A stretch of DNA of 64,000 nucleotides from Deltaproteobacteria bacterium ADurb.Bin151 (GTDB lineage: Bacteria > Desulfobacterota > Syntrophia > Syntrophales > Smithellaceae), in NCBI GenBank assembly GCA_002070455.1, contig MWDG01000003.1:7626-71625 (forward strand), written 5' to 3'. Positions within the stretch are counted from its first letter, which is position 1. Each line of letters opens with the position of its first letter. Under the pieces are notes generated by a model, which was not told the DNA's origin, did not search any database, and saw only the letters and a list, made by a program, of their open reading frames with translations. This document shows positions 13,753 to 27,728 of the stretch, piece after piece. The position numbers and the translations under genes were made by a program.

Positions 13753-15522
13753 TTGGTGCGTTTTGATGACAGCAAGATTGAAGAAATAAAAAGCAGGGTG
13801 GATATTGTCGAGCTTGCCTCCGAATACCTGACGCTGAAAAAGGCAGGCAGAAATTATCTGGGGCTGTGTCCTTTTCATCAGGAAAAAACGCCTTCATTTA
13901 CCGTCAACCGCGAGAAGCAGATATTTTACTGTTTTGGCTGTGGTCAAGGCGGCAATGTCATTACCCTGCTGATGAAAATTGCCAACAAGAGTTTTCCGGA
14001 AGCCGTTAAACAGCTCGCGGAAAAGACGGGTGTTGTCCTGCCTGTCCGGATGTTCGGCAGGGAAGACGGTGAAAAAAATTCCCTGCGCGATGAGATTATT
14101 CAGTTGAATTTGAGGGCGGCGCAGCAGTTTGTCCGCAATCTGTCGTCTGGGGCGGGTCAGGTTGCGCGGGATTACCTGCAGAAACGGTCCGTTACCGATG
14201 AGACCGTAAAGCAGTTCCGTCTCGGATACGTGCCGGACACCTGGCGTTCTTTGACGGATTACATGGAAGCCAGCGGTCTGTCCCTGGCACTGGCCGAGCA
14301 GGCCGGTCTTGTCGTTGCCGGTAAAGAAGGACGCTTCTACGATCGTTTTCGGGGGCGTCTGATTTTTCCGATTGAAAATATTTTTGGCGAGGTCATTGCT
14401 TTTGGTGGCCGGATTCTGGGGGAAGGTGAACCGAAGTATCTGAATTCGCCGGAATCTCCGGTTTATACCAAAGGCAAAAATCTGTATGGCCTTTTTCGGG
14501 CCAGAGAGGCAATCCGCCAGAGCGGTTTTTGCCTGATTGTCGAGGGATATTTTGACGCCATATCGCTCTGGAACGCGGGGGTCCGCAATGTGGTTGCCAC
14601 ACTGGGCACAGCGCTGACACGGGATCATCTGGAGCTTTTGCGCCGTTATACGCAGGATGTTGTGGCGCTCTTCGATCCGGATGAAGCGGGAAGAAAAGCG
14701 CTGGACCGTTCTCTGGAGCTGTTTCTCGGGGCGAAGATGCATGCCCGGGCCCTGGTTCTTCCCGGAGGCTGTGATCCGGATGATTACATCAAACAGTTCG
14801 GGAAAGAAAAACTTGAGGAACTGATTGCCGCCGCGCCGGCCATCAGTGATTATTATATTGATAACGTTTTGGGAGACGGCAGGACCTTTGAGGAAAACCG
14901 CGACCTTGTGAGAACCGCGATGGAATTCGTGGGGAAAATAGACGATGAGATTGAAAAAAATCTTTTCATCAAGCGCATTGCGGAGAGATTGGGGATTGAC
15001 CAGACCCTGTTGAAAAAAGAGGCACACCGCAAGACGGGTAAATCCCAACAGACGGGCCCCGCGGTCCACAAACGTTCGGACGCAATAAAACTGAATCCGC
15101 TTGAAATGAACCTCATCAGGCTGATGCTGGAATATCCGCAAAAAACGCTGTATGTAGAAAGGGAAAAAACATTAAATTATTTTTTGGAGCCTTCACTTCA
15201 AAAACTTGGTGATAAAATTATCGAGACCTATAAGCTCCTTGGCTACATAGACATTAACATGATTCTGCCATCGGACGAAGACACACCGCTTCGGGAAAGT
15301 ATATACAGGTTAAGTATTGAAGCCCCTCCGACCGATGAGAGTATGGTAGATCGCAACTTTGAGGATAACGTCCGCAGAATCAGGGAAAAATGGTACAAAG
15401 AACAGAAACGAATGGTTCAGCTGAAATTGAGGCAGGCGCAGGAGAACGGTGACGGGGAACTGACGCGGGAGCTTATTTTTCAAAAGCAGAATCTGATGAG
15501 GGAAGAAAAACAACTATACTAA
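13753..15522 (+). CDS. dnaG: DNA primase
   Basis: Zinc-ribbon CPFHQEKTPSFTV...YCFGCGQGGN, plus TOPRIM-region motifs (EGYFD, DPDEAGRKA). The start is TTG 13753 or GTG 13756. Confidence 0.9.
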   Translation: MVRFDDSKIEEIKSRVDIVELASEYLTLKKAGRNYLGLCPFHQEKTPSFTVNREKQIFYCFGCGQGGNVITLLMKIANKSFPEAVKQLAEKTGVVLPVRMFGREDGEKNSLRDEIIQLNLRAAQQFVRNLSSGAGQVARDYLQKRSVTDETVKQFRLGYVPDTWRSLTDYMEASGLSLALAEQAGLVVAGKEGRFYDRFRGRLIFPIENIFGEVIAFGGRILGEGEPKYLNSPESPVYTKGKNLYGLFRAREAIRQSGFCLIVEGYFDAISLWNAGVRNVVATLGTALTRDHLELLRRYTQDVVALFDPDEAGRKALDRSLELFLGAKMHARALVLPGGCDPDDYIKQFGKEKLEELIAAAPAISDYYIDNVLGDGRTFEENRDLVRTAMEFVGKIDDEIEKNLFIKRIAERLGIDQTLLKKEAHRKTGKSQQTGPAVHKRSDAIKLNPLEMNLIRLMLEYPQKTLYVEREKTLNYFLEPSLQKLGDKIIETYKLLGYIDINMILPSDEDTPLRESIYRLSIEAPPTDESMVDRNFEDNVRRIREKWYKEQKRMVQLKLRQAQENGDGELTRELIFQKQNLMREEKQLY

Positions 15523-15549
15523 CCAATAATGAATTTTGGGGGTTGCCAG

Positions 15550-17298
15550 ATGGCCAAACAGATCCAGTCTGATGAATTCAAGAAACTACTTTCACTGGGG
15601 GAAGAAAAGGGATTTTTAACCTACGATGACGTCAATGACATGTTGCCGCCGGATGTTAATTCTTCGGACCAGATCGATGATATCATCATGTTGTTCGGCG
15701 AAAAGAACATCGATATCATTGACACCGAGCAGGGTGAAAAACTGGTGGTAAAAAAACCGGTGGAAGATGCTTTGCCGTCCAAATTTTCCGAGGCCCTGGC
15801 CTTGGTTCCCGGTGTTGGAAAAACCGGCGATCCGGTGAAAATGTATTTGAGGGAGATGGGCTTAGTTTCCCTTTTGAGTCGTGAAGGAGAAGTGGAGATT
15901 GCAAAAAAAATCGAGGAAGGCGCCCGTGAGACCATGTGGGCGATTTTCAGTTTGACGGTTTCCATCGCCGAAGTTTTGAGTATTGGTGAAAAACTGGAAT
16001 CCGGTGAAATTCGAGTTAAAAACGTGGTGGATAACATCGAGGACGAAGAAGGATTCATGGAGGAAGATGAGCACAAGGAGCGCGTGCTCAAGTTGATTGC
16101 GCGAATTCGTCTTTTCAGCGACCGGAACGACGTTATACGAGAAAAGCTGAAGTCCAAAACCATCAAACCCAAGCAGCGTCAGTTGCTGACGGCAGAACTG
16201 GAAAAAAACACCAAAAATATTATTATCCTTTGCCGCAAAATTCGTTTCAGTAAGAAACAAATTCACCGCTTTATGGCCCGTTTGAGATCCCATACGGATG
16301 AAATTGAACGCTCAGAACGGGTGATTAACCAGTTTAAAAAGGAATCAGGACTGACTCTGACGCAGCTGGAAAAGAGCTGGTCTAAAATGAGGAAATCCAA
16401 ACAGGATGAGAAAAAAGCCGCGAAAGAAGCGAAAGTATCCGTTGACTGGCTGCATCGAAGTCATGACTCAATTGCGGAAGCGCAAAAACGAATCAAACAA
16501 ATTGTAAAAGAGGTTGGAATCCCTACGGCCACATTAAAGAATGTGGTGGATTCTATCGAATACGGCGAAGCCAAGGCGGAAGTCGCCAAAAGGAAACTTG
16601 TGGAGGCCAATCTGCGGCTCGTCGTCAGCATTGCAAAGAAATATACAAATCGCGGTCTGCAGTTTCTTGACCTGATCCAGGAGGGAAATATCGGGTTGAT
16701 GAAAGCTGTGGATAAATTTGAATACCAGAGAGGATACAAATTTTCTACGTACGCGACCTGGTGGATCCGTCAGGCGATTACGCGCGCCATTGCCGATCAG
16801 GCGCGTACCATCCGGATCCCGGTACACATGATTGAAACAATTAACAAGCTGATCCGGACATCACGTTACCTGGTGCAGGAACTGGGGCGTGAACCGACTC
16901 CTGAAGAAATTGCCAATAAAATGGAATATCCGTTGGAAAAAGTGCGCAAGGTGTTAAAAATTGCCAAAGAACCCATTTCTCTGGAAACCCCCATTGGGGA
17001 GGAAGAGGACAGTCATCTTGGTGATTTTATTGAAGATAAAAAAATCATGTCTCCTTCGGAAGCCACCATCAGCATGGATCTGGCTGATCAGACACGCAAA
17101 ATTTTGTCTACGCTCACGCCACGTGAAGAGAAGGTTCTGCGAATGCGCTTCGGAATCAGTGACAGGGTAGGTCTGCCGGTTCCGGATGAAAATTTGAGCG
17201 TTGATGCTGTGGAGCCCGAGATTGAGGAACAGGAGATCATGGAAGAGGAAATACCGAAAAAAACAAAGAATTCATCCAGAAAGCGCGCATCAAAATAG
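15550..17298 (+). CDS. rpoD: Primary-type sigma-70 factor RpoD with an aberrant C-terminus (region 4.2 not recognisable)
   Basis: Regions 1.1 to 4.1 are canonical ([82 protein letters not shown]). After codon I at 17155-17157 the sequence becomes an acidic/basic tail instead of the TLEEVG...[18 protein letters not shown] helix-turn-helix. Confidence 0.8.
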
Positions 17299-17437
17299 TA
17301 TTGACAACCGGCCCAATACGGTATATCTCACAAACCCGATGCCGGTTCGATCCGCACAAATTCTGTGTTCATTAGCGGTGCCGTCGCGGTATGGATGACG
17401 GACAGGTAAAGAAACCGCAAACCGAATGATCAAGGGC

Positions 17438-17513
17438 GGGCCTATAGCTCAATTGGTAGAGCCACCGGCTCATAACCGGTAGGTCCCTGGTTCGATCCCA
17501 GGTGGGCCCACCA
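17438..17513 (+). tRNA. tRNA with CAT anticodon (elongator Met, or Ile2 if lysidine-modified), encoded CCA end
   Basis: Hand-folded cloverleaf: acceptor GGGCCTA/TGGGCCC, D-arm GCTC-AATTGGTA-GAGC, anticodon loop CTCATAA (CAT at 17471-17473), T-arm CCTGG-TTCGATC-CCAGG. The G1-C72 pair argues against an initiator tRNA. Confidence 0.85.
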
Positions 17514-17671
17514 GATTTTTACTGAAATGAGAGGCTTTATGCGTGCAGAAAAAACACTTTTTTCACAAGCAAGGAGTTGTTGCGACGCTGCATATGACTG
17601 TACTGCCGTGGATAGACAATTAAAATTGTCTTTGCACGGCACACAGAACCAGACGCAAAGCCAGATGATCT

Positions 17672-17703
17672 AAAAATGCACCCCGAAAAGGTGCATTTTT
17701 TTA
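17672..17703 (+). terminator. Rho-independent terminator
   Basis: AAAAATGCACC-ccgaaaa-GGTGCATTTTT followed by a T-run. Confidence 0.8.
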
Positions 17704-17729
17704 TTGCTTAAAAATGGAGGAGATGATCG

Positions 17730-18449
17730 TTGAAAGAGAAAATAGCATTATTAATCAATCTGCAGGAATGTGATTCACAATTGGTCAAACTGTCTTCAAA
17801 AAAAGTCAAACTTCCGGAGAAAATCTGCAAGATGGAAGAAGAGTTTAGACTTTATAAGGAAGGCGTTGAGCAAAATAAGAGAAAATATGAAGAACTCAAA
17901 ACACAGCGGGCTGAGGGTGAGGCAAATGTCAAAAAGCTAAGCGACGGGATGGTCAAAACCAGGGAAAGGCTCCTGGAGGTGAAAAACAATAAAGAGTATC
18001 AGGCCATGCTAAAGGAAATTGAAACCTCTGAAAAGACGAAAAGTGATCTGGAGTCCCGTATCATTGCTTTTATGGAAGAAATGGATAAGCTTATTGTCCT
18101 GGTGAAAAAAGATGAGGAAATATTAAAGCAGGCTGAAAGTAATCATGAGAAAGAAATGAAAATCATTGAGGATGATCTCAATGCTATTGATGCGGATACA
18201 GTAACCTGGACGGAAAAGAGGGCCGTTTTAGCAAAAAGTATTCCTGCTGATCTGCTGGCCCAATACGAGAGGATAAGAAAACGAAATAACGGTATCGGTG
18301 TGATTCCTGTCTGGAAAGCGGTCTGCAGCGGCTGCCACATGAATATTCCCCCTCAATTGTATAACGAACTGCAGCGATCAAATGATTTGCTCAGTTGTCC
18401 AAACTGTAACCGGATCATGTATTTTCAAAATCAGGAAAAATCATCGTAG
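17730..18449 (+). CDS. C4-type zinc-ribbon / coiled-coil protein (COG1579, DUF164-like)
   Basis: Long coiled-coil followed by CSGCHMNIPPQ...CPNCNRI. TTG start. Confidence 0.7.
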   Translation: MKEKIALLINLQECDSQLVKLSSKKVKLPEKICKMEEEFRLYKEGVEQNKRKYEELKTQRAEGEANVKKLSDGMVKTRERLLEVKNNKEYQAMLKEIETSEKTKSDLESRIIAFMEEMDKLIVLVKKDEEILKQAESNHEKEMKIIEDDLNAIDADTVTWTEKRAVLAKSIPADLLAQYERIRKRNNGIGVIPVWKAVCSGCHMNIPPQLYNELQRSNDLLSCPNCNRIMYFQNQEKSS

Positions 18450-18455
18450 CTTTTT

Positions 18456-18875
18456 ATGGAAAATCAAAAGGTGAAATTATTCAGTGACGGTGCCTGTCGC
18501 GGCAATCCGGGCATTGGCGGTGCAGGTGCAGTGATTACCGATGACAGTGGTCATGTTCTGTGGGAAGGCAGTCAGTATCTGGGACAATGTACGAATAATA
18601 TCGCCGAATATCAGGCACTGATTCTCGGTCTGAAAGGCGCATTGGCTTGCGGTTACAAGAATCTGGAAATTTATCTGGATTCGGAATTACTGGCCAATCA
18701 GATCAACGGTTCCTACAAGGTCAAGAATGAGAATTTGAAAATCTTAATGCAGGAGGTCCGCAGCCTGCTTTCTTCATTCCAATCATCTCCGGTAAGACAT
18801 GTTTTGCGCTGCCACAATGCCCTGGCGGATAAACTGGCGAATCTGGCTATCGATACTCACCAGAAGATATCTTGA
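18456..18875 (+). CDS. rnhA: Ribonuclease HI family protein
   Basis: DGACRGNPG.GGAGAVI...TNN.AEYQALILGL...LDSELLANQ matches the RNase H catalytic DEDD-region pattern. Confidence 0.8.
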   Translation: MENQKVKLFSDGACRGNPGIGGAGAVITDDSGHVLWEGSQYLGQCTNNIAEYQALILGLKGALACGYKNLEIYLDSELLANQINGSYKVKNENLKILMQEVRSLLSSFQSSPVRHVLRCHNALADKLANLAIDTHQKIS

Positions 18876-18907
18876 AAGAAATTCAAATACATTGTAAATT
18901 ACTTATT

Positions 18908-19290
18908 CAGGCAGGAGAAGATCAGATGATCGCTGGCAGATTTTAATCTGTTGGAGGAAAGTCCGAGCTCCGCAGGGCAGGATGGTCGCTAACGGCGACT
19001 GGGGGCGACCCTAAGGAAAGTGCCACAGAAAATATACCGCCCGCCGATGGTGGGTAAGGGTGAAATGGCGAGGTAAGAGCTCACCGCTTTTCCGGTGACG
19101 GAAAAGGCATGGTAAACCCCATCCGGAGCAAGACCAAATAGGAGAACGTTTAAGGGCGGCCCGCCTGATGTTCTCGGGTAGTGTCGCTAGAGGCGGCAGG
19201 CAACTGCCGTCCCAGATGAATGATCATCGCCGCGTCCAGGGTAACCGAAACGCGGAACAGAACTCGGCTTATGGTCTTCTCCTGTGCCTG
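18908..19290 (+). ncRNA. rnpB: RNase P RNA, bacterial type A
   Basis: Conserved GGAGGAAAGTCCGAGCTCC...GGGTAAGGGTGAAA...GGTAAACCCC...ACAGAACTCGGCTTA blocks. The P1 stem pairs 18912-18923 with 19273-19284. Ends are approximate, within about 5 nt. Confidence 0.9.
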
Positions 19291-19400
19291 TTTCATCCCG
19301 CTTACGCGGGATGAACGTAAATGCTTCACTTGCTTTGATAGCCTTAATGTTCATGCCATGCCTTGACCGCTTGCTGCGAAATGGATGATGGATAATACAC

Positions 19401-19685
19401 CTATAGACCGATTCCTCTTTTTTTTGCCTCTTTATAAAGTCTCCAGATACACAGACCGATCGCCAGGGTGAATGAACTCAACATGAAATTCGGTGTTGTG
19501 CCAAGGATTTCATCTACGAGATAACCAAGATACAGGAACAGGAACGAGGAAACAACCATCGCCAGTCCCCATGCAGATAATACCAGAATACTATTGTACT
19601 GACTGAATTGTTTATTGCTTATCAGAGGTTTTTCTTTTGGCATGATCTTTTCATTTTCCTGATCCTTGCCAGTGTTATTTGTCAT
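19401..19685 (-). CDS. AtpZ/AtpI-family small membrane protein
   Basis: 94 aa, two TM helices with LGYLVDEILGTTPNFML...RLYKEAKK, resembling AtpZ/AtpI-type proteins. Confidence 0.5.
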   Translation of the reverse strand: MTNNTGKDQENEKIMPKEKPLISNKQFSQYNSILVLSAWGLAMVVSSFLFLYLGYLVDEILGTTPNFMLSSFTLAIGLCIWRLYKEAKKRGIGL

Positions 19686-19692
19686 GTTTTAT

Positions 19693-19908
19693 TTATTTCT
19701 CTATTTGAATATGAAGGATAAGTTTTTTCAGCAACTCCAGCCCTGGCTCTGTAAAGATCGCCACCAGAACGAAAAACAGGATAAATACAAGGATGAGTTC
19801 AAAATTATGGACTTTCGGGTACTTTCTTTTAACAAAGACAAGGAGAAAAACACCGGCAATTAAAATGACCAGATGCAAGATAGGAAACAGGCTCGCAATA
19901 AATTCCAT
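19693..19908 (-). CDS. Small two-TM membrane protein, unknown function
   Basis: 71-aa hydrophobic ORF 8 nt upstream of the AtpZ-like gene on the same strand. Confidence 0.4.
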   Translation of the reverse strand: MEFIASLFPILHLVILIAGVFLLVFVKRKYPKVHNFELILVFILFFVLVAIFTEPGLELLKKLILHIQIEK

Positions 19909-19980
19909 TTTACTCTCCTTTGAGATAAAATATGAATTATCATTAAGAAAAAACTTATGGTTGTCAAGGTAAATAAAAAA

Positions 19981-20010
19981 AGGCCGAATCGAAATCCGGC
20001 CCTTTTTTTT
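19981..20010 (-). terminator. Probable (bidirectional-looking) terminator after the dCache gene
   Basis: GGCCG...CGGCC stem flanked by an A-run and a 9-T run. Confidence 0.5.
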
Positions 20011-20028
20011 TCAGTTGTTTAAACTCGG

Positions 20029-21345
20029 TTATTTATCGTCGTCATCATCATCGTTGAACACGGATAAATCACCCTCGGAGCCTTCTGGAATTTCCGACTT
20101 CAAGGAACGGGAAATTCCACGAACCAGTATCAGCATAATGAAGAACAAAAGAACCATGGCAACAATCAGGACCAGAATAACGGTCGCAGTCCATGCTTTC
20201 GATTCCTTCTCAATGCTCTTCGATACCTTTGCTGCTTCCTCGTTGTATTTTTCAACTTCCAGTCCCAGACCTACCCAGCCAAAGCCTGTGGGTTCGGGAA
20301 GGTTTGACGCATAAAATTTAATCGGCGCATAGGCGACAAACTTCGTCAATCCGCCGAACTTATAGGTTACAATTCCGGTTTTCCCGGCGGCTGCGTCTTT
20401 CGCGATGGTAAACAGATTAGGATCCAAAAATCCCATGTTGAACATATTCAGCGCTTCAGCACCTTTCTGGGCCAGGTCTTTTGCGTTCTGGGCAGAAAGA
20501 GTCGGAACGTCTGTCCCGTCGCTGTTCAGACCGACAATGTGATAATCAGCAGGATGGGCAACGACATAGCCGCGGTTGTCTACCATGTAAGCGTAGTTGC
20601 CGGAAGACGCATCTGTTTCAAATACCCTTTCCGCCTGTGTTGGAATCAACTGGTCGGTAAACTGGGACAGATGGCGATAGTCCATGGACAGTACGATCAT
20701 ACCAGCGAAGCCTTCCTGGTTAAAAATCGGTGTGGCAAATCGAACCACTCCATCAAATCTTCCGCCTTTGTCGAACGCCGATTTGTTTACGTACCATCCG
20801 GTCACAGGAGAGACATACACTTCGCCTTTATTCAGGTTTCTTGCTTTGGCAAAATAATCCTCTCTTTTATAGGTTGTGTTGGCCGGATTACTGACATTGA
20901 CCAGTTGCGCGGCCGGAACGACCTGGTTCCCTACTATTTTAATCTGCTCATTGCCGTTTTTATCTATCAGAGCAAGTTCTTTGTATATCGGAACCAATGC
21001 CTGCTGAACTTTACCGTCAGCTTTGACCCAGAGCGGCTTTTTATTTTCGTCAATAAACTGTTTGTATACAACATCAGTGGCTGGAATGATGGTTGCAACC
21101 TGTAAATCTTTCTTGCATTCCATGAGGAAACTTGCAACCTGATTTGCTGTATTTTGGGCTCTCGCTTTTATATCTTCCTGAGACTTAACATCGAGAACAT
21201 TAACGGTTCTCTCTTTTATGGTAACCCCTAATTTGAACATTCCGTTAGCGATTAAAAACGCCATCAGTGATAAGGGGATTACGATAAGCAGGAAGAATAC
21301 ACCTGCGATAGGTAAAGACTTCTTATCCTTTTTAGTTTCTGGCAT
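20029..21345 (-). CDS. Double-Cache (dCache_1-like) extracytoplasmic sensor-domain protein with two TM helices and no output domain
   Basis: TM1 (LPIAGVFFLLIVIPLSLMAFLIA) is followed by about 330 aa with Cache-type signatures (REDYFAKARNLNKGEVYVSPV..., GMIVLSMDYRHL, NYAYMVDNRGYVVAHP). TM2 is followed by only a ~35-aa acidic tail ending DDDDDDK. Confidence 0.7.
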   Translation of the reverse strand: MPETKKDKKSLPIAGVFFLLIVIPLSLMAFLIANGMFKLGVTIKERTVNVLDVKSQEDIKARAQNTANQVASFLMECKKDLQVATIIPATDVVYKQFIDENKKPLWVKADGKVQQALVPIYKELALIDKNGNEQIKIVGNQVVPAAQLVNVSNPANTTYKREDYFAKARNLNKGEVYVSPVTGWYVNKSAFDKGGRFDGVVRFATPIFNQEGFAGMIVLSMDYRHLSQFTDQLIPTQAERVFETDASSGNYAYMVDNRGYVVAHPADYHIVGLNSDGTDVPTLSAQNAKDLAQKGAEALNMFNMGFLDPNLFTIAKDAAAGKTGIVTYKFGGLTKFVAYAPIKFYASNLPEPTGFGWVGLGLEVEKYNEEAAKVSKSIEKESKAWTATVILVLIVAMVLLFFIMLILVRGISRSLKSEIPEGSEGDLSVFNDDDDDDK

Positions 21346-21394
21346 TATAAGTTCCCCCTAACCTTTCTTGGTTTAATAGTTAATTTGTTTAGCA

Positions 21395-21772
21395 TTAACC
21401 CAAAAAGAAAGCCTTGAAGGGGTTGGCGTATAATAAGATCAGAGCAATAACCAAAGCGTAAATGGCGATGGATTCAGCCATGGCCATACCAACAAGCATA
21501 ACCATCATAATCTTGCCCTGAACGCCGGGGTTTCTTCCGACAGCCTGGCACGCGCCGTTTGCCGCATTACCAATACCTGCGCCCGCGCCGATTGCGCCCA
21601 GTCCAATGGCCAGACCTGCGCCGATCATTGCGCCCACTGCAAAAATGACTTTAATGTAAGATTCACCACCCACCGGTATCGCCTCTGCTGCGAAAGCAAA
21701 CTGGCTGGTTAACAGCAAAGCTGCTGCCGATGTGAAAACTGTTAAAAATACTTTTCCGAATTTATGTGACAT
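21395..21772 (-). CDS. atpE: F-type ATP synthase subunit c with N-terminal signal-peptide-like extension
   Basis: GLGAIGAGAGIGNAANGA glycine-zipper helix, RNPG loop, and AMAESIAIYALVIALILLYANPF ion-binding helix (conserved Glu). The extension MSHKFGKVFLTVFTSAAALLLTSQFAFA-AE precedes these. Confidence 0.85.
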   Translation of the reverse strand: MSHKFGKVFLTVFTSAAALLLTSQFAFAAEAIPVGGESYIKVIFAVGAMIGAGLAIGLGAIGAGAGIGNAANGACQAVGRNPGVQGKIMMVMLVGMAMAESIAIYALVIALILLYANPFKAFFLG

Positions 21773-21882
21773 TATCTGTCTCCTTTCCTGACATGTAATT
21801 TATTTTTTATTTCCGCCTGCATAGCATATTTTTCAATGCCGCGCAAAGAGGAATTAATACCCATGTCGACAGTCACGTCGAC

Positions 21883-21898
21883 TTGCACAAGATGTGCC
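21883..21898 (-). promoter_or_regulatory. Sigma-54 (-24/-12) promoter candidate reading toward atpE
   Basis: The minus strand reads TGGCAC-ATCTT-GTGCA, with correct GG/GC spacing relative to the consensus TGGCAC-N5-TTGCA. It lies about 110 nt upstream of the atpE ATG. Confidence 0.55.
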
Positions 21899-22279
21899 AT
21901 GGCATGAATATGCAAGGCATTTTTTCTGAAATTTAATTTATGAAATCAGAGAATAAAAAAAATTACCATCTGATTTTATAAAGATGACTGTGATTCATTT
22001 TTCTAAAAAATATTAAAAAAGGGAAATATCGCGCCGTGAAAACTTTTGCGTGGGGAATAATTTATTGTCAAAGATAAGCATCGATTTAATGTTTTGTTCA
22101 ATCGCCTGTCATAAAACATTCAATGGAGCATTTCTAAACGGGGAACATCCTGCTGATTTTTTTCCACGGGAAACCGTTTTTGATATTTCAGTTGAAATTT
22201 TGAGGCAATGTCGTTACGATTGAAAAGATTTCGGAACAAAGACTTAAACGATCATGAAAATATAACATAAAGGATTACC

Positions 22280-22459
22280 ATGCAGGAAATTTTAACCGCC
22301 GTTACCTACCCGATCGTCTGGCTGATTTGTGGATACCTTTTAAAGATTGAAAGTGGTCTGGCCAAACTGCTGATTTCCCTGACTGCGGCAATCCTGGTTT
22401 ATGTTTTAATAGGCATCAAGCGCTCGCAAAAAGAAAACAACGAGGACAATGAAGATTAA
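22280..22459 (+). CDS. Small (59-aa) two-TM membrane protein abutting the histidine kinase start
   Basis: ATG at 22280 follows AAGGA. Hydrophobic product with an acidic tail. The stop TAA (22457-22459) is immediately followed by the kinase GTG (22460). It falls below the ORF-track length cutoff. Confidence 0.4.
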   Translation: MQEILTAVTYPIVWLICGYLLKIESGLAKLLISLTAAILVYVLIGIKRSQKENNEDNED

Positions 22460-25051
22460 GTGATTTTGCTCAGGAAGGCCTACAAGCTTCTGAATCAATT
22501 ATTGAGCCCGCGTATCTGGTTTGCCAGCATTATTGTTGTTGTTCTGATTCTGCTGTTGGCTTTAACGGTGAACCACGCACGTGAAAAGGAGATGGTTGAT
22601 TTATTCAGCCGTCAGCAACTGGCATCCGCTCAAAACGCATCGGCGCGAATAGCAGAAATTCTTTCGCAGGTGGAAAGAAATATTGCTCTGTTCAAGTACC
22701 TGGATCCCAACGGGAAAAAACTCACCCAGGAAGATTATCGTGAATTAGACGTTGTTTACTCCATCTGGGGCAGGACGATTGATGCGGTGCTGGTCTTTGA
22801 TGCCGATAACAACATCAGGAAAATTCTACCGCAGGACGCAACACCGGGCGTCGACCTGACCACGCATTTCAGCGCGATGAAACTTCGCAAAAGGCAATAC
22901 CTGACCATTGCTTTATCAGACAATATTGCCAGCGATTCTCTTGCCCAGACGAAAGACCGGTATTTAATCTGGGGTTATCCCGTCTGGGATCAAAATAACG
23001 TTTTCTCCGGCGCATGGATGATATCTTTTTCCCTGGCTCAGCTGGTGGATGCGTGTGAAAGACAGATCAAGGACAATAAGCTGGGAGATCTCTGGCTGGT
23101 CAATGAGCAGGGGCAGATATTGCTGCATCCTCATTCCCTGTTCATTGGGAAATACGTCGGGGATCTGGTGAAGGATCGTCGCGGCAATACGATCGTCTTT
23201 CCATCGGAAGGCGGCAGACACACAGATGCCAAAATTCTCCAGGCGAACAACAAACCGTTAAGAAGTGTTATCTCCTATTCCCCGTTGCAGATTGCTGGAA
23301 CCACCTGGTATGTCATGGTGACGGTGCCCTACAGTAATGTTATTGCCCCCGTGCGAACCACCTTTATTTACACCATGTTCAGTTCACTGGTGCTGATCCT
23401 GGGACTCGTTGTCGTCGGGATCTTTTTTGCCTTCCGTGAAGGCAAAAGATTAAGAATGAGAGAAGAGCGGGAACGATCCAGAGAGCGTGAAGCCTGGCAG
23501 GAAAAGCTCCTCAGAGAAAAGAAGACCATCGATGGAATCATAGAGGGTTCGCCAATTCCCAGTTTTGTCATCAACAAAGAACATAAAGTCATTTTATGGA
23601 ACAGAGCCTGCGTGGAATTGACGGGATGCTCCGCCGAAAGCATGCTGGGCACCGATCAGCATTACAAGTCCTTCTATTCCGTTCAAAGGCCCATGGTGGT
23701 TGATTTGATCGTGGACAATGATATTGACGGCCTCAATCAATTCTACGGAGCAAAAAAGGTCAAGAAATCGGAGAAGGTGCCGGGTGCTTACGAAGCCTAT
23801 GACCATTTTGACAATTTGGGCGGTCGCAGCCGGTACATGTATTTTCTGGCGGCTCCGATTTATGATGAGGACGGGAATATCATTGCGGCCATGGAAACGC
23901 TTCAGGATATCTCACGCGAAGAAGAGCTGACCCGTTCTTTACGGGAATACGCAGAAACGCTCCAGAATGAACTGGGGGAAAACATTGAACTGCGCAGAGA
24001 GATCGAAGGGCTATATAACTATCTGCAGTCCATTGTGAAAAGTCTGCCGGATAAAATCTACGAGGTGGATAAAGACGGCATTCTCAATTTCATCAGCGGA
24101 GGATTTAAAAAGTCAAGCAGCGAGTTTCGGGGAAGGCATTTTCTGGAGTTCGTCGCACCCGAGGATGAAAATTTTGTGATGGCAAAATGGGAGGATGCAA
24201 AGAAGGGAATATTTACGCCTTATGAAATTGAAACAACCACAAAGGAAGGCCGCAAGATCAATCTTATGGTAACAACGGCCCCGGTTGTCGGCACAGATCA
24301 TTACATTCTGGTGCAGCGCGATATCACGGAATACAAGAATTTGGAAAAGAAACTCTATAACAGTGAAAAACTTGCCGCTCTGGGTCAGCTTTCCGCCGGG
24401 ATTGCACACGAAGTACGCAATCCCCTTTCATCCATCAAGATGAGTCTGCAAATTCTGGAAAAAAGGATGAATCCGGAAGGCAATGATCTGAAAAGATTTA
24501 AGATCGCGCAAAAAGAAGTTGAACACCTGGAGGAGTTGGTTAATAATGTGCTCGTTTTCGCAAAACCCATGGAGCCCAAAATAGCGTCTGCCGATCTCAA
24601 TAAATTGCTGGAGCGCGCGGTTTCCCTGTGCGAAAAAATTATTCAGGACAAACAGATCGATATAAAACTGGAATCCCAGCAGATCCCGATGGTAAACGTG
24701 GATGTGGCGATGATTACGGACGCCTTTGTGAATGTTATCCGTAATGCGGTTGAGGCGATGGAAAACAACGGGCACATCCGTATTTACGCCCGCAGCATTG
24801 GCAGCCAGCCGCCTTCTGTTCTTGTCGTCGTGGAAGACGACGGCTGCGGGATCGATGATGCGGATATGCCCCATCTGTTTAATCCTTTCTTTACCAAGAA
24901 AAAATATGGTACGGGGCTGGGACTTTCACAGGTACTGAAAATCGTGGAAGTGCATCAGGGAAAACTTGAAATCATCAGTGAAAAAGATAAAGGGACCAAG
25001 GTTTGCGTCACATTGCCGTGCAATGAGAGACGCCGCACCCCGAGAGTTTGA
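22460..25051 (+). CDS. Sensor histidine kinase with periplasmic Cache-like domain, PAS domains, HisKA and HATPase_c
   Basis: Two TM helices flank a ~270-aa extracytoplasmic domain. PAS-like regions follow. H-box SAGIAHEVRNPLSSI. N/G boxes (NAVEAM...DDGCGI...GTGLGL). Confidence 0.85.
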   Translation: MILLRKAYKLLNQLLSPRIWFASIIVVVLILLLALTVNHAREKEMVDLFSRQQLASAQNASARIAEILSQVERNIALFKYLDPNGKKLTQEDYRELDVVYSIWGRTIDAVLVFDADNNIRKILPQDATPGVDLTTHFSAMKLRKRQYLTIALSDNIASDSLAQTKDRYLIWGYPVWDQNNVFSGAWMISFSLAQLVDACERQIKDNKLGDLWLVNEQGQILLHPHSLFIGKYVGDLVKDRRGNTIVFPSEGGRHTDAKILQANNKPLRSVISYSPLQIAGTTWYVMVTVPYSNVIAPVRTTFIYTMFSSLVLILGLVVVGIFFAFREGKRLRMREERERSREREAWQEKLLREKKTIDGIIEGSPIPSFVINKEHKVILWNRACVELTGCSAESMLGTDQHYKSFYSVQRPMVVDLIVDNDIDGLNQFYGAKKVKKSEKVPGAYEAYDHFDNLGGRSRYMYFLAAPIYDEDGNIIAAMETLQDISREEELTRSLREYAETLQNELGENIELRREIEGLYNYLQSIVKSLPDKIYEVDKDGILNFISGGFKKSSSEFRGRHFLEFVAPEDENFVMAKWEDAKKGIFTPYEIETTTKEGRKINLMVTTAPVVGTDHYILVQRDITEYKNLEKKLYNSEKLAALGQLSAGIAHEVRNPLSSIKMSLQILEKRMNPEGNDLKRFKIAQKEVEHLEELVNNVLVFAKPMEPKIASADLNKLLERAVSLCEKIIQDKQIDIKLESQQIPMVNVDVAMITDAFVNVIRNAVEAMENNGHIRIYARSIGSQPPSVLVVVEDDGCGIDDADMPHLFNPFFTKKKYGTGLGLSQVLKIVEVHQGKLEIISEKDKGTKVCVTLPCNERRRTPRV

Positions 25052-25108
25052 AAAAGAGTAAAAGAGCAGGATGATCCGGAAATCCCCTGAATGGCGAAGG
25101 TGATAATT

Positions 25109-26494
25109 ATGGCAAGTATACTGGTTATTGACGACGACGCATCGATTGTGGAAACGCTGGATTTGTATCTGACGGAAGAGGGATACAGCGTAAGAACAGC
25201 TCTGACCGGTACGGACGGCTTGAATAAATATGTGCAGGAGCCTTCAGATGTAGTGATCCTGGATATCCGCCTGCCCGATGTGGATGGGTTTTCCGTTCTG
25301 GAAGATCTCAAGGAAGAGAATGAAAATGTTAAAGTGATCATGATTACCGCTTTCCATGATATGGAAACCACCATCAACGCCATGAAGGCCGGCGCTTTTG
25401 ATTATATCCATAAACCGGTCAATGTTGATGAACTCGACCTGGCGATCAAGAAAGCTCTGAAGTCTCTGGAGATGGAGAAAAAAATTGACGGTCTGCTCAT
25501 AGAACCTTCACGCAGTTTCCGTGTCGGGGATATTATCGGCACGGGCAATGAAATGCGGGAAATCTTCAAGACGATCGGTACCGTTTCCAAAAGCCGCACA
25601 ACGGTGCTCATCCAGGGGGAGAGCGGCACCGGGAAAGAATTGATTGCCAAGGTTATTCATAATAATACTTCCGCCGATGAACCGTTTATTGCCGTGAATT
25701 GTTCAGCCATTGTTGAAACGCTTCTGGAATCGGAGTTGTTTGGTCATGAGAAAGGATCGTTTACGGGGGCTGTTGCGCGAAAACTGGGCAAGTTTGAGCT
25801 GGCAAGGTTTGGCACCGTATTCCTGGATGAAATCAGTGAAATGTCCATCAATTTGCAGGCCAAACTTCTTCGGGTTCTACAGGAAATGGAATTTGAACGC
25901 GTAGGCGGTAAAGACAGGGTGAAAGTCAATGCCCGCATCATGGCCGCCACCAACAAAGATCTAAAATTGATGGTCAAGGAGGGAAGATTCAGGGATGATC
26001 TGTATTATCGTTTGAATATTGTGTCCATTAACCTGCCTCCATTGCGTTCGCGACGCCAGGATATCCCGCCTTTGATTGATTATCTGCTTTCCAAAATCAA
26101 CCTGGATCTTCATAAAAAAATCATCGGCGTTTCCGGTGAGATGATGGACAAATTTATGAACTATGAATGGCCGGGGAATATCCGCGAACTGGAAAACCTG
26201 CTGGTAAGGGCCTGCGTTGTGGCCAAAGGTCAGGTTCTGGGTGTCGGTGATTTTCCAGAGCTGGGCAAGGACAGTCAGTCGATTACGGCGCAAGACGATC
26301 AAACCTCCGAAGTCTTTAAGCCGGAAGAACCGGGTAAATTTCTTACCCTTGATCAGGTTGAAGAACGCTACATCAGGAAAATTATCAAAGAAACAGACAA
26401 GAACAAAGGGGAAGTCTGTGAAACCCTCGGAATTTCACGTCCCACCTTTGAACGCAAACTGGAAAAATACGGCATCTCCTTTGAACGTGAATGA
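25109..26494 (+). CDS. Sigma-54-dependent response regulator (NtrC family: REC-AAA+-HTH)
   Basis: ILVIDDD...DIRLPD REC domain. GESGTGKE Walker A, GSFTGA (GAFTGA variant), ELENL, and a C-terminal Fis-type HTH (LGISRPTFERKL). Confidence 0.9.
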   Translation: MASILVIDDDASIVETLDLYLTEEGYSVRTALTGTDGLNKYVQEPSDVVILDIRLPDVDGFSVLEDLKEENENVKVIMITAFHDMETTINAMKAGAFDYIHKPVNVDELDLAIKKALKSLEMEKKIDGLLIEPSRSFRVGDIIGTGNEMREIFKTIGTVSKSRTTVLIQGESGTGKELIAKVIHNNTSADEPFIAVNCSAIVETLLESELFGHEKGSFTGAVARKLGKFELARFGTVFLDEISEMSINLQAKLLRVLQEMEFERVGGKDRVKVNARIMAATNKDLKLMVKEGRFRDDLYYRLNIVSINLPPLRSRRQDIPPLIDYLLSKINLDLHKKIIGVSGEMMDKFMNYEWPGNIRELENLLVRACVVAKGQVLGVGDFPELGKDSQSITAQDDQTSEVFKPEEPGKFLTLDQVEERYIRKIIKETDKNKGEVCETLGISRPTFERKLEKYGISFERE

Positions 26495-26633
26495 TAGGTT
26501 GTTGACCGGTGCCGCATAATGCGGGGCGGCCCGGTTGTTCAATGAACGTTTCACCTGCCGGTACAGCAAAAGTTTTTCAAAGATATACGCTGTGCTTTGC
26601 CGGCGTTGCCGTAACCGGCGAAAAGGAGGCCTC

Positions 26634-27728
26634 ATGAAAAAAATACTGCTGACCATTGTTTTTATTCTGTTGTTGCTTGCGGCTTATTTGATTTTCTGGC
26701 CAGTGCCGATTGAACCCGTCGTCTGGAAGGCACCCATGGCCGCCGGCTATACCGGACCGCACGCCGTCAATACGAAGCTTGCCGGGCTTAAAACAATTCC
26801 TCTGGGAACGGAAGAAGGACCTGAACACATTGCCATCGGCAAGGACGGCAAGCTCTACACTACCGTTACCAGTGGTAATATTCTGCGCATGAATCCGGAC
26901 GGGAGCGCACAGGAAATTTTTGTCAATACAGGCGGACGGGTGCTGGGTTTCGATTTTGACAAATCCGGCAATCTGATCGCCGCCGATGCTTTTAAAGGCC
27001 TGCTTTCAATCAGCCCGGACAAAAAAATCACCCTATTGACCGATCAGGTAAACGGAGACCCCATCCGCTATGCCGATGCCGTGGTGGTGGCCGGATCAGG
27101 CAAGATCTATCTGAGTGATGCGTCAATGCGTTTTGCGCCCCGGGATTGGGGCGGGACATTTGAGGCCAGTATCCTGGATATCATGGAGCAGTCATCAACC
27201 GGACGCGTTCTGGAGTATGACCCGGCAAACAAAACAACCCGTGTGGTGGCAAAAGGCTTCAGTTTTGCCAACGGTGTGGCCTTGAGCCAGGATGAAAAAT
27301 ACCTGTTTGTCAATGAAACCGGTAAATACAGAGTGTGGAAGGTTTTAGTGAGCGCCAATGATCTGGATATGTCCAACCCGGGCGGCCAGGCGAAACTGGT
27401 GTTGAACAATTTACCCGGTTATCCGGACAACCTGATGCGCGGGCTTGACGGCAAGATCTGGCTGGGCTTCGCAAAGCCGCGTAGTGCTTTACTTGAAAAG
27501 ATTTCCACTCCGTTTTTGCTCAAACTTACCCTGCGGCTGCCGCGTGCCATGTGGCCGGTGCCAAAAGCCTACGGTCATGTGATCGCGTTTACGGAAGACG
27601 GCAAAGTGGTGGCTGATCTGCAGGACCCGAGCGGTGCGTACCCGGAGGCGACAGCGGTCACGGAGACCACAGACCGGCTTTACATCCAGAGCCTGCATGC
27701 CAGGGAGTTGGGCTGGATGCCCAGATGA
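26634..27728 (+). CDS. SMP-30/gluconolactonase/strictosidine-synthase-like beta-propeller protein, membrane-anchored or secreted
   Basis: ATG at 26634 follows AAAGGAGG. N-terminal hydrophobic anchor. GPE..A.G.DG.LY..., YADAV...G.IY.SDAS, ANGVALS.DE..L.V.ET..YRV. Confidence 0.65.
   Translation: MKKILLTIVFILLLLAAYLIFWPVPIEPVVWKAPMAAGYTGPHAVNTKLAGLKTIPLGTEEGPEHIAIGKDGKLYTTVTSGNILRMNPDGSAQEIFVNTGGRVLGFDFDKSGNLIAADAFKGLLSISPDKKITLLTDQVNGDPIRYADAVVVAGSGKIYLSDASMRFAPRDWGGTFEASILDIMEQSSTGRVLEYDPANKTTRVVAKGFSFANGVALSQDEKYLFVNETGKYRVWKVLVSANDLDMSNPGGQAKLVLNNLPGYPDNLMRGLDGKIWLGFAKPRSALLEKISTPFLLKLTLRLPRAMWPVPKAYGHVIAFTEDGKVVADLQDPSGAYPEATAVTETTDRLYIQSLHARELGWMPR

Follow-up and report, generated by a model that had tools for sequence, protein, structure and literature searches.

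In the genome of the Smithellaceae member Deltaproteobacteria bacterium ADurb.Bin151 (GCA_002070455.1), an orphan gene for an F-type ATP synthase c subunit, atpE2, is followed by the gene of a double-Cache membrane protein without an output domain, Cache438, and comparative sequence data support a true coupling of the two. The pair is co-transcribed, and the upstream region with its sigma-54 promoter and two-component genes is the key to the locus. We consider it probable, with modest confidence, that atpE2-Cache438 is an operon switched by sigma-54 and an NtrC-type activator, which would provide an inducible c subunit (c2) for the single F-type synthase, with Cache438 acting on c2. The window analyzed is a 64,000-nt stretch of contig MWDG01000003.1 (positions 7,626 to 71,625, forward strand); its features around atpE2, in window coordinates, are as follows.

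18914-19286, plus strand: rnpB (Rfam)
19401..19685, minus strand: p94, AtpZ/AtpQ family, 94 aa (PF09527)
19693..19908, minus strand: p71, 71 aa, two TM helices
19967..19939, minus strand: sigma-70-like promoter of p71, which also has an SD
19975..20008, minus strand: intrinsic terminator-like hairpin and T-run, directly 3' of the Cache438 stop codon
20029..21345, minus strand: Cache438, TM-dCache-TM protein, 438 aa (Pfam, AF2, Foldseek)
21395..21772, minus strand: atpE2 (c2), F-type c-subunit paralogue, 125 aa (ORF, PF00137 and TIGR01260 profiles)
21883..21898, minus strand: sigma-54 type -24/-12 element TGGCACatcttGTGCA (GG-N10-GC)
21937..21982, no strand: proximal dyad, 14-nt arms (93% complementary), 18-nt spacer
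22081..22127, no strand: distal dyad, core AATGTTTT-N17-AAAACATT, 15-nt arms, 17-nt spacer
22280..22459, plus strand: p59, 59 aa, two TM helices and an acidic tail
22460..25051, plus strand: HK863, sensor histidine kinase (Pfam)
25091..26494, plus strand: NtrC467, NtrC-family sigma-54 activator (Pfam)

The initial annotation had described the four minus-strand ORFs in this order, a 49-nt gap between the c gene and the dCache gene, a hairpin with T-run after the latter and rnpB on the downstream side, and all of these were found in place, the gap measuring 49 nt. It had also described some 500 nt upstream of the c gene as non-coding. These 507 nt are indeed non-coding but are not plain DNA, since a conserved sigma-54 promoter and two dyads lie inside. 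Rfam, searched at gathering thresholds from 15000 to 27000, returned rnpB and one tRNA only, with no riboswitch in the 507-nt region.

About 90 loci of Syntrophales and Desulfomonilia share the order c subunit, then TM-dCache-TM protein; a c gene followed after about 50 nt by a Cache gene occurs in the genus, in Desulfomonilia and in no fewer than 14 families of the order. The pair was kept in 28 of 30 loci from the genus, in 14 of 16 from other families of the order and in 71 of 80 named species genomes (the other nine have no upstream flank or are unresolved); the cassette occurs in more than 250 species-level genomes. The initial annotation had allowed for chance adjacency, should the Cache gene be missing from the same position in relatives and should atpE2 be the only atpE of the genome. 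Conservation of the adjacency goes far beyond chance: the Cache gene is present at that position in relatives, and the genome holds three c genes (c1, c2 and the c gene of an N-ATPase). As regards conservation and origin of the pair, the comparisons show co-inheritance of Cache438 with the c lineage, apparently since before the Syntrophales-Desulfomonilia split. No paper tying a Cache domain to a c-ring or describing the atpE2-Cache cassette was found in the literature; the Ca. Smithella cisternae paper gives the Fo genes merely as "dispersed."

RNA-derived contigs from Logan metatranscriptomes (21253-21786 and 21271-21860) bridge the gap between atpE2 and Cache438, and contigs over Cache438 stop at 20026-20027, near the terminator-like hairpin. 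We conclude that atpE2 and Cache438 are co-transcribed as a two-gene operon. One contig ends at 21860, 23 nt downstream of the -12 element, a contig end not being a mapped start, and none of the metatranscriptome contigs extends past the sigma-54 promoter. The atpE2-Cache438 contigs have depths comparable in magnitude to those of the c1 and atpB contigs, depth in Logan contigs being a poor measure, with DNA carry-over possible.

The -24/-12 element reads TGGCAC-N5-GTGCA and lies 111 nt upstream of the atpE2 ATG. About 85 orthologous loci have a GG-N10-GC element some 100-120 nt before atpE2, in which GG and GC never vary, and the genome encodes rpoN (an ORF with the RpoN box on contig C17). 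The distal dyad lies about 190 nt upstream of the -24 element and may be an activator-binding site; 64 of 82 loci have its core at this distance. An alignment of 77 upstream regions shows a partly conserved block that overlaps the proximal dyad, which lies 40-85 nt upstream of the -24 element; this dyad is a candidate for a second activator site or a site for a bending protein.

The product of atpE2 scores 67.4 bits against PF00137 (cut-off 24) and 45.3 bits against TIGR01260 (cut-off 43.95) and aligns over its full length with solved c rings. Helix 1 is GAIGAGAGIGNAANGA, the loop is RNP and helix 2 contains MAESIAIY; in the alignment, the helix-2 Glu and the RNP loop match those of solved rings. 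Identity of atpE2 is 92-99% inside the genus and 66-77% over the order. The signal-peptide-like N terminus noted earlier is borne out: it comprises about 28 aa, MSHKFGKVFLTVFTSAAALLLTSQFAFA preceding AEA, with the cut site (AFA/AEA) called by the AxA rule and not by a predictor. The F-type c subunit AtpE of Aquifex aeolicus is made with an N-terminal signal peptide, and the c2 precursor likewise has a cleavable-looking hydrophobic extension ending in AxA. Such an extension is common to c1, c2 and the Desulfomonilia c genes, so that the Cache partner is not accounted for by the extension alone.

An Asn had been assigned to the helix-1 Gln position of c2. This proved wrong: in the alignment with solved c rings, taking the G-Q-G motif as reference (Q29 in Spirulina, Q32 in I. 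tartaricus), Ile occupies the Gln position and the Asn sits at +2. Na+-binding c subunits of the I. tartaricus type have Gln or Glu at the G-Q-G position, a feature that c2, with Ile, lacks. The helix-2 motif, which had been likened to Na+-binding rings, was compared with an I. tartaricus type site (Q32, E65, S66, T67 and Y70); E, S and Y are present in c2 (E-S-I-A-I-Y), but the Thr position is taken by Ile. With Ile also at the helix-1 Gln position, the Na+ site of c2 is incomplete at two of four side-chain positions, and coupling to H+ rather than Na+ appears more likely from the sequence. The Na+ F1Fo of A. woodii (c1, c2/c3; 4bem) likewise has more than one F-type c isoform for one enzyme, and its 4bem chains rank among the best PDB matches to atpE2. 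The A. woodii c genes reportedly lie inside the atp operon and are expressed together, forming one mixed ring. Here, in contrast, the c isoforms are unlinked, one of them has its own sigma-54 promoter, two-component system and Cache-domain partner, and neither c1 nor c2 has a complete Na+ motif.

As had been noted, other atp genes are missing near atpE2, and none was found elsewhere on the contig: the two a subunits are on contigs C22 and C28 and the two F1 sets on C28 and C35. A search for the remaining atp genes, proposed in the initial annotation, located an N-ATPase operon on C28 with its own c gene, and c1 at 6 kb from an F-type atpZ-atpI-atpB cluster that has no c gene adjacent. No part of the N-ATPase operon (atpDCQRBEFAG, as identified by atpR and gene order) is present at the atpE2 locus. 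In the complete genome G043 there is a single a subunit, and the c genes are c1 and c2 only. Given two a subunits and two F1 sets for three c genes, together with the gene content of G043, c1 and/or c2 must therefore build the F-type ring, and we infer that c2 would enter the F-type rotor.

It is improbable, in our estimate, that c2 and Cache438 belong to a membrane complex separate from ATP synthase, such as a ligand-controlled proteolipid pore or ion sensor that might also include p71 and p94, while the F-type rotor is built from c1 alone. The locus does lack a, b and F1 genes, the sensor family recurs beside ion-translocating machinery (Rnf and Mrp/Mnh), and Desulfomonilia have a canonical atpB-adjacent c gene in addition to both Cache-paired c genes. 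Yet c2 keeps the features of a rotor subunit, namely the helix-2 Glu, the RNP loop that contacts gamma and epsilon and the Gly-rich packing motif, and, like working c subunits, it is more conserved than its neighbours. Moreover, c1 and c2 are mutual closest relatives and the only F-type c subunits of Syntrophales, and the TM helices of Cache438 hold no conserved charged residue that could replace the stator Arg.

Cache438 consists of TM1 (residues ~13-35), a periplasmic double-Cache region (~50-365), TM2 (~380-408) and an acidic tail of 30 aa. A match to dCache_1 had been expected; the profile score, 34 bits, is below the Pfam cut-off of 45, but structure prediction confirms the fold, and precomputed Pfam annotation lists PF02743 for Cache438 orthologues. 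The AF2 model (pLDDT 76.7 overall, above 90 over most of the periplasmic part) has a long N-terminal helix and two PAS-like alpha/beta modules, with a TM helix on each side. The top Foldseek matches are all double-Cache ligand-binding domains with probability 1.0, including Mlp24, vpHK1S-Z8, mmHK1S-Z2/Z3, TlpA and PctA-C (target-normalised TM-scores 0.5-0.68). The segment corresponding to the R-x-W-Y motif of amino-acid-sensing dCache domains reads, by eye, E-D-Y-F.

That the protein lacks an output module was confirmed, as Pfam at E <= 1 detected no HAMP, kinase, MCP or cyclase domain. All orthologues end about 30 residues past TM2, and the acidic cytoplasmic tail ending in DDDDDDK is equally real: it is about 30 aa long, with the poly-Asp-Lys end kept in 68 orthologues. 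Between families, hardly any variation is seen in TM1 (FFLLIVIPLSL), in an RGISRS motif or in the poly-Asp tail; for TM1 this holds even though the families are just 50-60% identical overall. No c-Cache fusion protein was found among the 150 best family representatives, and in longer relatives the match begins at residue 66 or earlier, leaving too little room for a c hairpin.

The closest long relatives of Cache438 are sensor kinases. Desulfobacterota kinases such as the 1073-aa protein of locus L132 (TM-dCache-TM-HAMP-GAF-PAS-HisKA-HATPase, followed by an NtrC-type regulator) are homologous to its TM-dCache-TM part over residues 16-417 (~300 bits) and share the motifs E(T/D)YF, GNYA(Y/F) and AYAPI. 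Unlike them, Cache438 has no transmitter domain: an acidic tail of about 30 residues is all that follows TM2. By homology, Cache438 is a kinase-less descendant of a sensor-kinase input module. The neighbours of the full-length kinases are mixed (DctP, UbiD, OAD beta, a periplasmic binding protein, MCP) and therefore allow no conclusion as to the Cache438 ligand.

This ancestry invites the view that the locus is a chance or decaying remnant, a redundant atpE duplicate beside a truncated, non-functional kinase fragment. Cache438 does resemble a kinase cut in the first residues of its HAMP region, and in G043 the Cache gene is frameshifted and split into three frames, which could reflect either a real pseudogene, the gene then being dispensable, or an assembly error. 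We find this view barely credible, since a full-length frame (430-441 aa) is intact in more than 250 species, strong conservation includes the tail, the pair is transcribed, the promoter is conserved, and a truncated pseudogene is not expected across two classes.

In the tree, all output-less Cache proteins linked to a c gene group together in a single clade (100/100), which divides into two subclades. Members of the paralogous subclade also follow a c gene and adjoin nfnAB or rnfABCDGE; their loci have no sigma-54 element and no adjacent kinase or activator. The kinase P0195 (MBN2282709.1, 1138 aa) is nested in the Cache438 subclade. It is a one-member cluster, encoded inside an Mrp antiporter (Mrp/Mnh) gene cluster without a c gene. 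In P0195 a Cache438-type sensor is fused to a kinase core and a PAS domain, the latter sharing 47% identity with residues 354-483 of HK863.

Divergently from atpE2, the stop codon of p59 abuts the start codon of HK863; the divergent arrangement of p59 is found in 82 of about 110 related loci, mostly across an intergenic region of 400-650 nt. HK863, a conserved neighbour of the pair, consists of TM, dCache, TM, PAS domains, HisKA and HATPase. NtrC467 contains REC, a Sigma54_activat AAA+ domain (PF00158, 224 bits) and a Fis-type HTH, and is 74-75% identical to its counterparts in orthologous clusters of Desulfomonilia. Together, the upstream dyads, p59, the Cache-PAS kinase and the NtrC-type activator complete one regulatory unit, in which HK863 and NtrC467 are the likely regulators of atpE2-Cache438. 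The HK863 sensor is missing from all six cassette-less Syntrophales genomes, which have one c gene (four genomes), three (one) or none (one). Two cassette-bearing genomes have no detectable HK863 homologue. The layout is that of DctB/DctD-dctA, ZraSR-zraP and glnAp2, with a sensor kinase, a REC-AAA+-HTH activator, GG-N10-GC and upstream dyads. The targets in those systems are a transporter, a stress protein and an assimilation enzyme, whereas here the target is an ATP synthase rotor subunit with a kinase-less sensor.

Cache438 may thus act on the c-ring or serve as an extra kinase input. In the second role, Cache438 would assist HK863, either as an accessory sensor giving it a further periplasmic input or as a feedback modulator signalling how much operon product is present; the c subunit would then be mere regulated cargo, and the adjacency would mean co-regulation, not physical contact between c subunit and Cache protein. 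This is a serious possibility that we nevertheless rate as doubtful. The full-length members of the family are indeed sensor kinases followed by NtrC-type regulators, P0195 offers a Rosetta-stone-type hint by joining a Cache438-type sensor to an HK863-like PAS/kinase, and Cache438, p59 and HK863 are neighbours in 82 loci. This fusion, however, is the single case described above, in an Mrp context devoid of a c gene. Furthermore, four families have the pair without an adjacent kinase, two of them without any HK863 homologue in the genome, and the paralogous subclade keeps its c neighbour with neither kinase, activator nor sigma-54 element. The existence of a c-linked, output-less clade and of a paralogous subclade lacking a two-component system ties the Cache protein to the c subunit rather than to the kinase. 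In pairwise comparison, the Cache domain of HK863 showed no significant similarity to Cache438; an origin of Cache438 as a duplicate of HK863's own sensor was discarded, and an HK863-Cache438 heterodimer formed through the Cache domains is unlikely, as the sensor domains are unrelated in sequence.

We therefore return to the inducible-rotor reading. HK863, possibly together with p59, would control NtrC467; NtrC467 would probably activate the sigma-54 promoter and hence transcription of atpE2-Cache438. The operon would provide c2 as a second, inducible rotor isoform for the cell's single F-type ATP synthase, with c1 encoded elsewhere and the third c gene belonging to the separate N-ATPase. Cache438 would most likely act on c2 in the membrane, on assembly, stability or rotation of the ring, through its conserved TM helices and acidic tail and in answer to a periplasmic ligand. 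A more specific version, which we regard as unlikely, makes Cache438 a ligand-sensing rotor subunit, its TM helices on or in the c2 ring and its poly-Asp tail on the basic RNP loops, so that a periplasmic signal could brake, release or template the ring. On this version, the recurrence of the sensor lineage beside Rnf and in an Mrp antiporter cluster suggests that the signal reflects the ionic or energetic condition of the membrane (cations or pH, for example).

Syntrophs of the Smithella type, which degrade fatty acids and alkanes, live on the smallest energy quanta known. Their ATP synthase runs forward for ATP synthesis and backward to drive uphill electron transfer, and the ions exchanged per ATP are set by how many c subunits, and of which kind, the rotor contains. 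The locus suggests that such energy-starved organisms may be able to re-equip the ATP synthase rotor on a signal. We know of no regulated c isoform in bacteria; a sensor-switched second rotor isoform, if real, would be a genetic handle on whether bacteria tune the ion/ATP ratio. If Cache438 were a rotor subunit, it and the inducible c2 isoform together would allow syntrophs, which live at the thermodynamic limit, to change the ion/ATP "gear" of their sole F-type synthase or the direction in which it runs. A ligand-binding protein co-inherited with a c subunit over two classes would be a new type of partner for a rotary ATPase, and this holds equally whether Cache438 acts on the ring or on a kinase. 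In digesters, sediments and oil reservoirs, the hosts of the cassette control how fast methanogenic degradation proceeds.

The initial annotation had counted p71 and p94 in the same array. They are on the same strand but constitute a separate unit, behind the terminator and the sigma-70-like promoter. No Pfam family matched p71; the AtpZ-like assignment of the 94-aa protein was upheld (PF09527, AtpZ/AtpQ family, 31.1 bits, cut-off 26.6). About 50 loci have the two genes paired and close to the cassette, the arrangement being of three different kinds, and the genome has five PF09527 genes, among them two close p94 paralogues that are not beside atp genes. Occurring in only about half of the loci and with p94 paralogues away from atp genes, p71 and p94 are loosely linked to the cassette and do not belong to its core. 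The same count of PF09527 genes, two of them close p94 paralogues off the atp genes, led us to reject the idea of one AtpZ/AtpQ protein per c gene. Small membrane proteins of the AtpI/UncI and AtpZ/AtpQ/AtpR types are encoded in atp operons (Dibrova et al., 2010, PMC2881411). Like Cache438, they are accessory membrane proteins encoded alongside c subunits; Cache438 differs from AtpI, AtpZ, AtpQ and AtpR in its length of 438 aa and its large periplasmic ligand-binding fold, and has no similarity to them.

The initial annotation had described an orphan ATP-synthase c-subunit gene beside an output-less dCache membrane protein, an overall observation that we confirmed. Open reading frame and profile searches bore out the four minus-strand frames, the 49-nt gap, the hairpin with its T-run and rnpB. 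The features of the locus, in window coordinates, are as follows.

Features of the minus-strand array
21772..21395, minus: atpE2, F-type c subunit (product c2), 125 aa (PF00137, 67.4 bits; TIGR01260, 45.3 bits)
21345..20029, minus: Cache438, 438 aa, two TM helices flanking a periplasmic domain, 49 nt downstream of atpE2
20008..19975: strong hairpin with T-run, between the Cache438 and p71 genes
19967..19939: sigma-70-like promoter, after the hairpin and ahead of the p71 gene
19908..19693, minus: p71, small protein of 71 aa
19685..19401, minus: p94, small protein of 94 aa (PF09527, 31.1 bits versus a cut-off of 26.6)
18914-19286, strand opposite to the minus-strand genes: rnpB

A dCache_1 domain had been expected in 20029..21345. 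The Pfam score of Cache438 (34 bits) falls under the cut-off of 45, but the double-Cache fold was recovered from structure: the AF2 model (pLDDT 76.7, mostly >90 in the periplasmic part; pTM 0.70) matches solved double-Cache ligand-binding domains with probability 1.0. The protein is indeed output-less, as first described; a Pfam search revealed no transmitter domain, and the chain ends about 30 residues past TM2 in an acidic tail (...FNDDDDDDK) kept in 68 orthologues. Public annotation calls these orthologues "hypothetical" or "cache domain-containing protein".

Absence of the Cache gene from the same position in relatives, named at the outset as a sign of chance adjacency, is clearly contradicted by comparative genomics. 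Of 61 related genomes, 50 carry one full-length copy (92% to 49% identity), and an atpE2-type c gene lies directly 5' of the Cache gene in 28/30 loci of the genus (the other two are cut by contig ends), 14/16 loci of other families and 71 of 80 named species genomes (GTDB representatives), the remaining nine species loci lacking the upstream flank or not being resolved. Six Syntrophales genomes have no Cache gene; four of these carry one c gene, one carries three and one none. The atpE2-Cache438 adjacency is functional. In the single-contig assembly G043 the Cache438 orthologue (L045:7989-9311) is broken up into three ORFs (134, 105 and 249 aa) that lie in different frames, whereas the flanking genes for c1 (the other F-type c) and c2, here convergent neighbours of each other, are intact; the break reflects either a genuine pseudogene or indel errors of a long-read assembly.

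Judged by the names of the organisms from which near-identical proteins and loci derive, the DNA comes from a Smithella-like bacterium of the order Syntrophales. Its assembly contains three c genes, two a subunits and two F1 sets; apart from atpE2, these are arranged as follows.

Other ATP-synthase genes of the assembly
Contig C28: complete N-ATPase operon atpDCQRBEFAG, including its own c gene
Contig C35: F1 and stalk genes atpF'FHAGDC
Contig C22: atpZ-atpI-atpB, without a c gene adjoining atpB
Contig C22, 6 kb from atpZ-atpI-atpB, opposite strand: c1, 124 aa, with signal peptide

Thus atpE2 is not the sole atpE of the genome, the other circumstance that would have pointed to chance, but a second F-type c isoform. 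In the complete genome G043, which encodes a single a subunit, c1 and c2 are the only c genes; therefore the Syntrophales F-type ring would have to be built from one or both of these. Desulfomonilia additionally retain a canonical c gene beside atpB, with a G-Q-G motif; Syntrophales have no such atpB-adjacent c gene. In the genome paper of Ca. Smithella cisternae, Fo genes are noted only as dispersed. About 1 kb downstream of c1, at the end of C22 (37100-37291; L003:2800-2992), metatranscriptome contig depth reaches about 9000, probably the signal of a gene for an abundant stable RNA that the end of the contig truncates.

The helix-1 Gln position of atpE2 had been read as Asn. Alignment to solved c rings corrects this: the position is Ile, Asn follows two residues later, and helix 2 reads E-S-I-A-I-Y. 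On this alignment the Na+ motif is incomplete and H+ coupling of c2 is the likelier, if unproven, reading. The F-type enzyme of S. aciditrophicus is H+-specific (Dibrova et al., PMC2881411). Three Desulfomonilia genomes (G447:C137:1875-3275, G375:C47:245246-246646 and G103:C41:118968-119888) contain single frames of 326-494 aa in which four to six c-subunit hairpins (PF00137 repeats) stand in tandem; they resemble F/N-type rotor rings whose subunits have been covalently joined. The G103 frame directly follows an a-subunit gene (118329-118907) and precedes another, separate c gene whose Na+-type motif (E...ESTGIY) is complete.

Among 1.84 billion cluster representatives we found only 460 relatives of Cache438; long kinases and chemoreceptors make up most of them, and clusters of the 430-440-aa form are very rare. 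The best homologues outside Syntrophales/Desulfomonilia align with residues 16-417 (about 300 bits) and are N-terminal parts of 820-1220-aa ORFs (for example, TM-dCache-TM-HAMP-GAF-PAS-HisKA-HATPase), in most examined cases with an NtrC-type regulator gene directly 3'. Maximum-likelihood analysis places all output-less, c-linked Cache proteins in one clade (100/100), so the transmitter was lost once. The atpE2-linked orthologues, with the Desulfomonilia ones among them, make up one of its two subclades; the other is a Desulfomonilia/Thermodesulfobacteriota paralogue (37% identity), whose gene likewise lies directly 3' of a c gene, here resembling Smithella c1. These second-subclade loci lack a sigma-54 element or two-component system; next downstream is either nfnAB or rnfABCDGE together with nfnA. 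Hence the c-Cache pairing is older than the duplication and survives without the kinase, which is our main reason for placing Cache438 function with the c subunit.

The region upstream of atpE2, described initially as 500 nt of non-coding DNA, measures 507 nt and is not empty.

Upstream and divergent features
21883-21898, minus: sigma-54-type -24/-12 element TGGCACatcttGTGCA (GG-N10-GC), 111 nt before the atpE2 ATG
21937-21982: proximal dyad, further upstream
22081-22127: distal dyad, further upstream
Divergent from atpE2: p59, 59 aa, two TM helices
Divergent from atpE2: HK863, Cache-PAS histidine kinase
Divergent from atpE2: NtrC467, NtrC-family activator (REC; Sigma54_activat, 224 bits; HTH_8)

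Roughly 85 loci of Syntrophales and Desulfomonilia have an element of this form, with GG and GC invariant, 100-120 nt 5' of atpE2, and the distal dyad core AATGTTTT-N17-AAAACATT lies ~190 nt from the -24 element in 64/82 loci. The divergent p59/kinase/activator arrangement is kept in 82 loci, and rpoN is found in the genome. The HK863 sensor is missing from all six Syntrophales genomes without the atpE2-Cache438 cassette; where the cassette lacks an adjacent kinase (four genomes), it is located elsewhere in two. Directly 3' of NtrC467 (26535-27728, plus strand) is a gene for a 397-aa protein of the strictosidine-synthase-like/SMP-30 family whose N-terminus forms a membrane anchor or signal sequence.

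The atpE2-linked subclade also includes one kinase, P0195 (MBN2282709.1), in which a Cache438-type sensor is fused to a kinase core and to a PAS domain that shares 47% identity with the first PAS of HK863. It keeps alive the alternative that Cache438 feeds HK863. This fusion, however, is a single-member cluster in an antiporter context: the histidine kinase (1138 aa; L180:8001-11417, GCA_016933965.1, JAFGTS010000011.1) lies amid a Mrp/Mnh-type cation/proton antiporter cluster. That setting and the Rnf neighbourhood hint that the sensor lineage reports membrane ion or energy state. Two Usp and two response-regulator genes also occur in the antiporter cluster.

Four public metatranscriptomes contain exact window sequence, as assembler contigs that report presence and linkage, not quantity. 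Contigs 21253-21786 and 21271-21860 bridge the atpE2-Cache gap, the longest ending 23 nt downstream of the -12 element, and contigs over Cache438 end at its stop codon. Contig depth, which is not quantitative, is several-fold lower over the kinase operon and p71/p94 than over atpE2-Cache438, and of the same order for c1 and atpB in the same runs.

Taken as a whole, we consider it somewhat better than an even chance that atpE2 would be an inducible alternative rotor isoform, Cache438 its dedicated, kinase-less partner, and both under a two-component/sigma-54 switch; any specific role for Cache438 we hold with less confidence. The literature that we searched describes neither the pairing of a Cache protein with a c subunit nor a c isoform under sigma-54 control.

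The AtpZ-like small proteins had been counted in the same array. Membership of p94 in PF09527, where AtpQ has also been placed (Dibrova et al., PMC2881411), stands, but the p71 and p94 genes form a transcription unit of their own. About 50 loci have the two close to the cassette, arranged in one of three ways (on the same strand, convergent, or 3' of the activator gene); in the Desulfomonilia locus L139 they occur together with Cache, atpE2, p59, kinase and activator in another order. In run X29, a Cache-covering contig continues past the stop codon (20027) into 31 letters unlike the window, which suggests that a strain differing in its downstream region co-occurs and fits the patchy presence of p71/p94. 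Because the genome has five PF09527 genes, p94 among them, and the two closest paralogues of p94 lie away from atp genes, we treat p71/p94 as only loosely associated with the cassette. This small-protein subfamily is multi-copy in Smithella; the paralogues (C14:18391-18639 and C146:199-456) share the core ...LSAWG.A.V..SFLFL.LGY..DE.LGT.P..., and one lies ~430 nt from what by eye is an apparent toxin-antitoxin pair.
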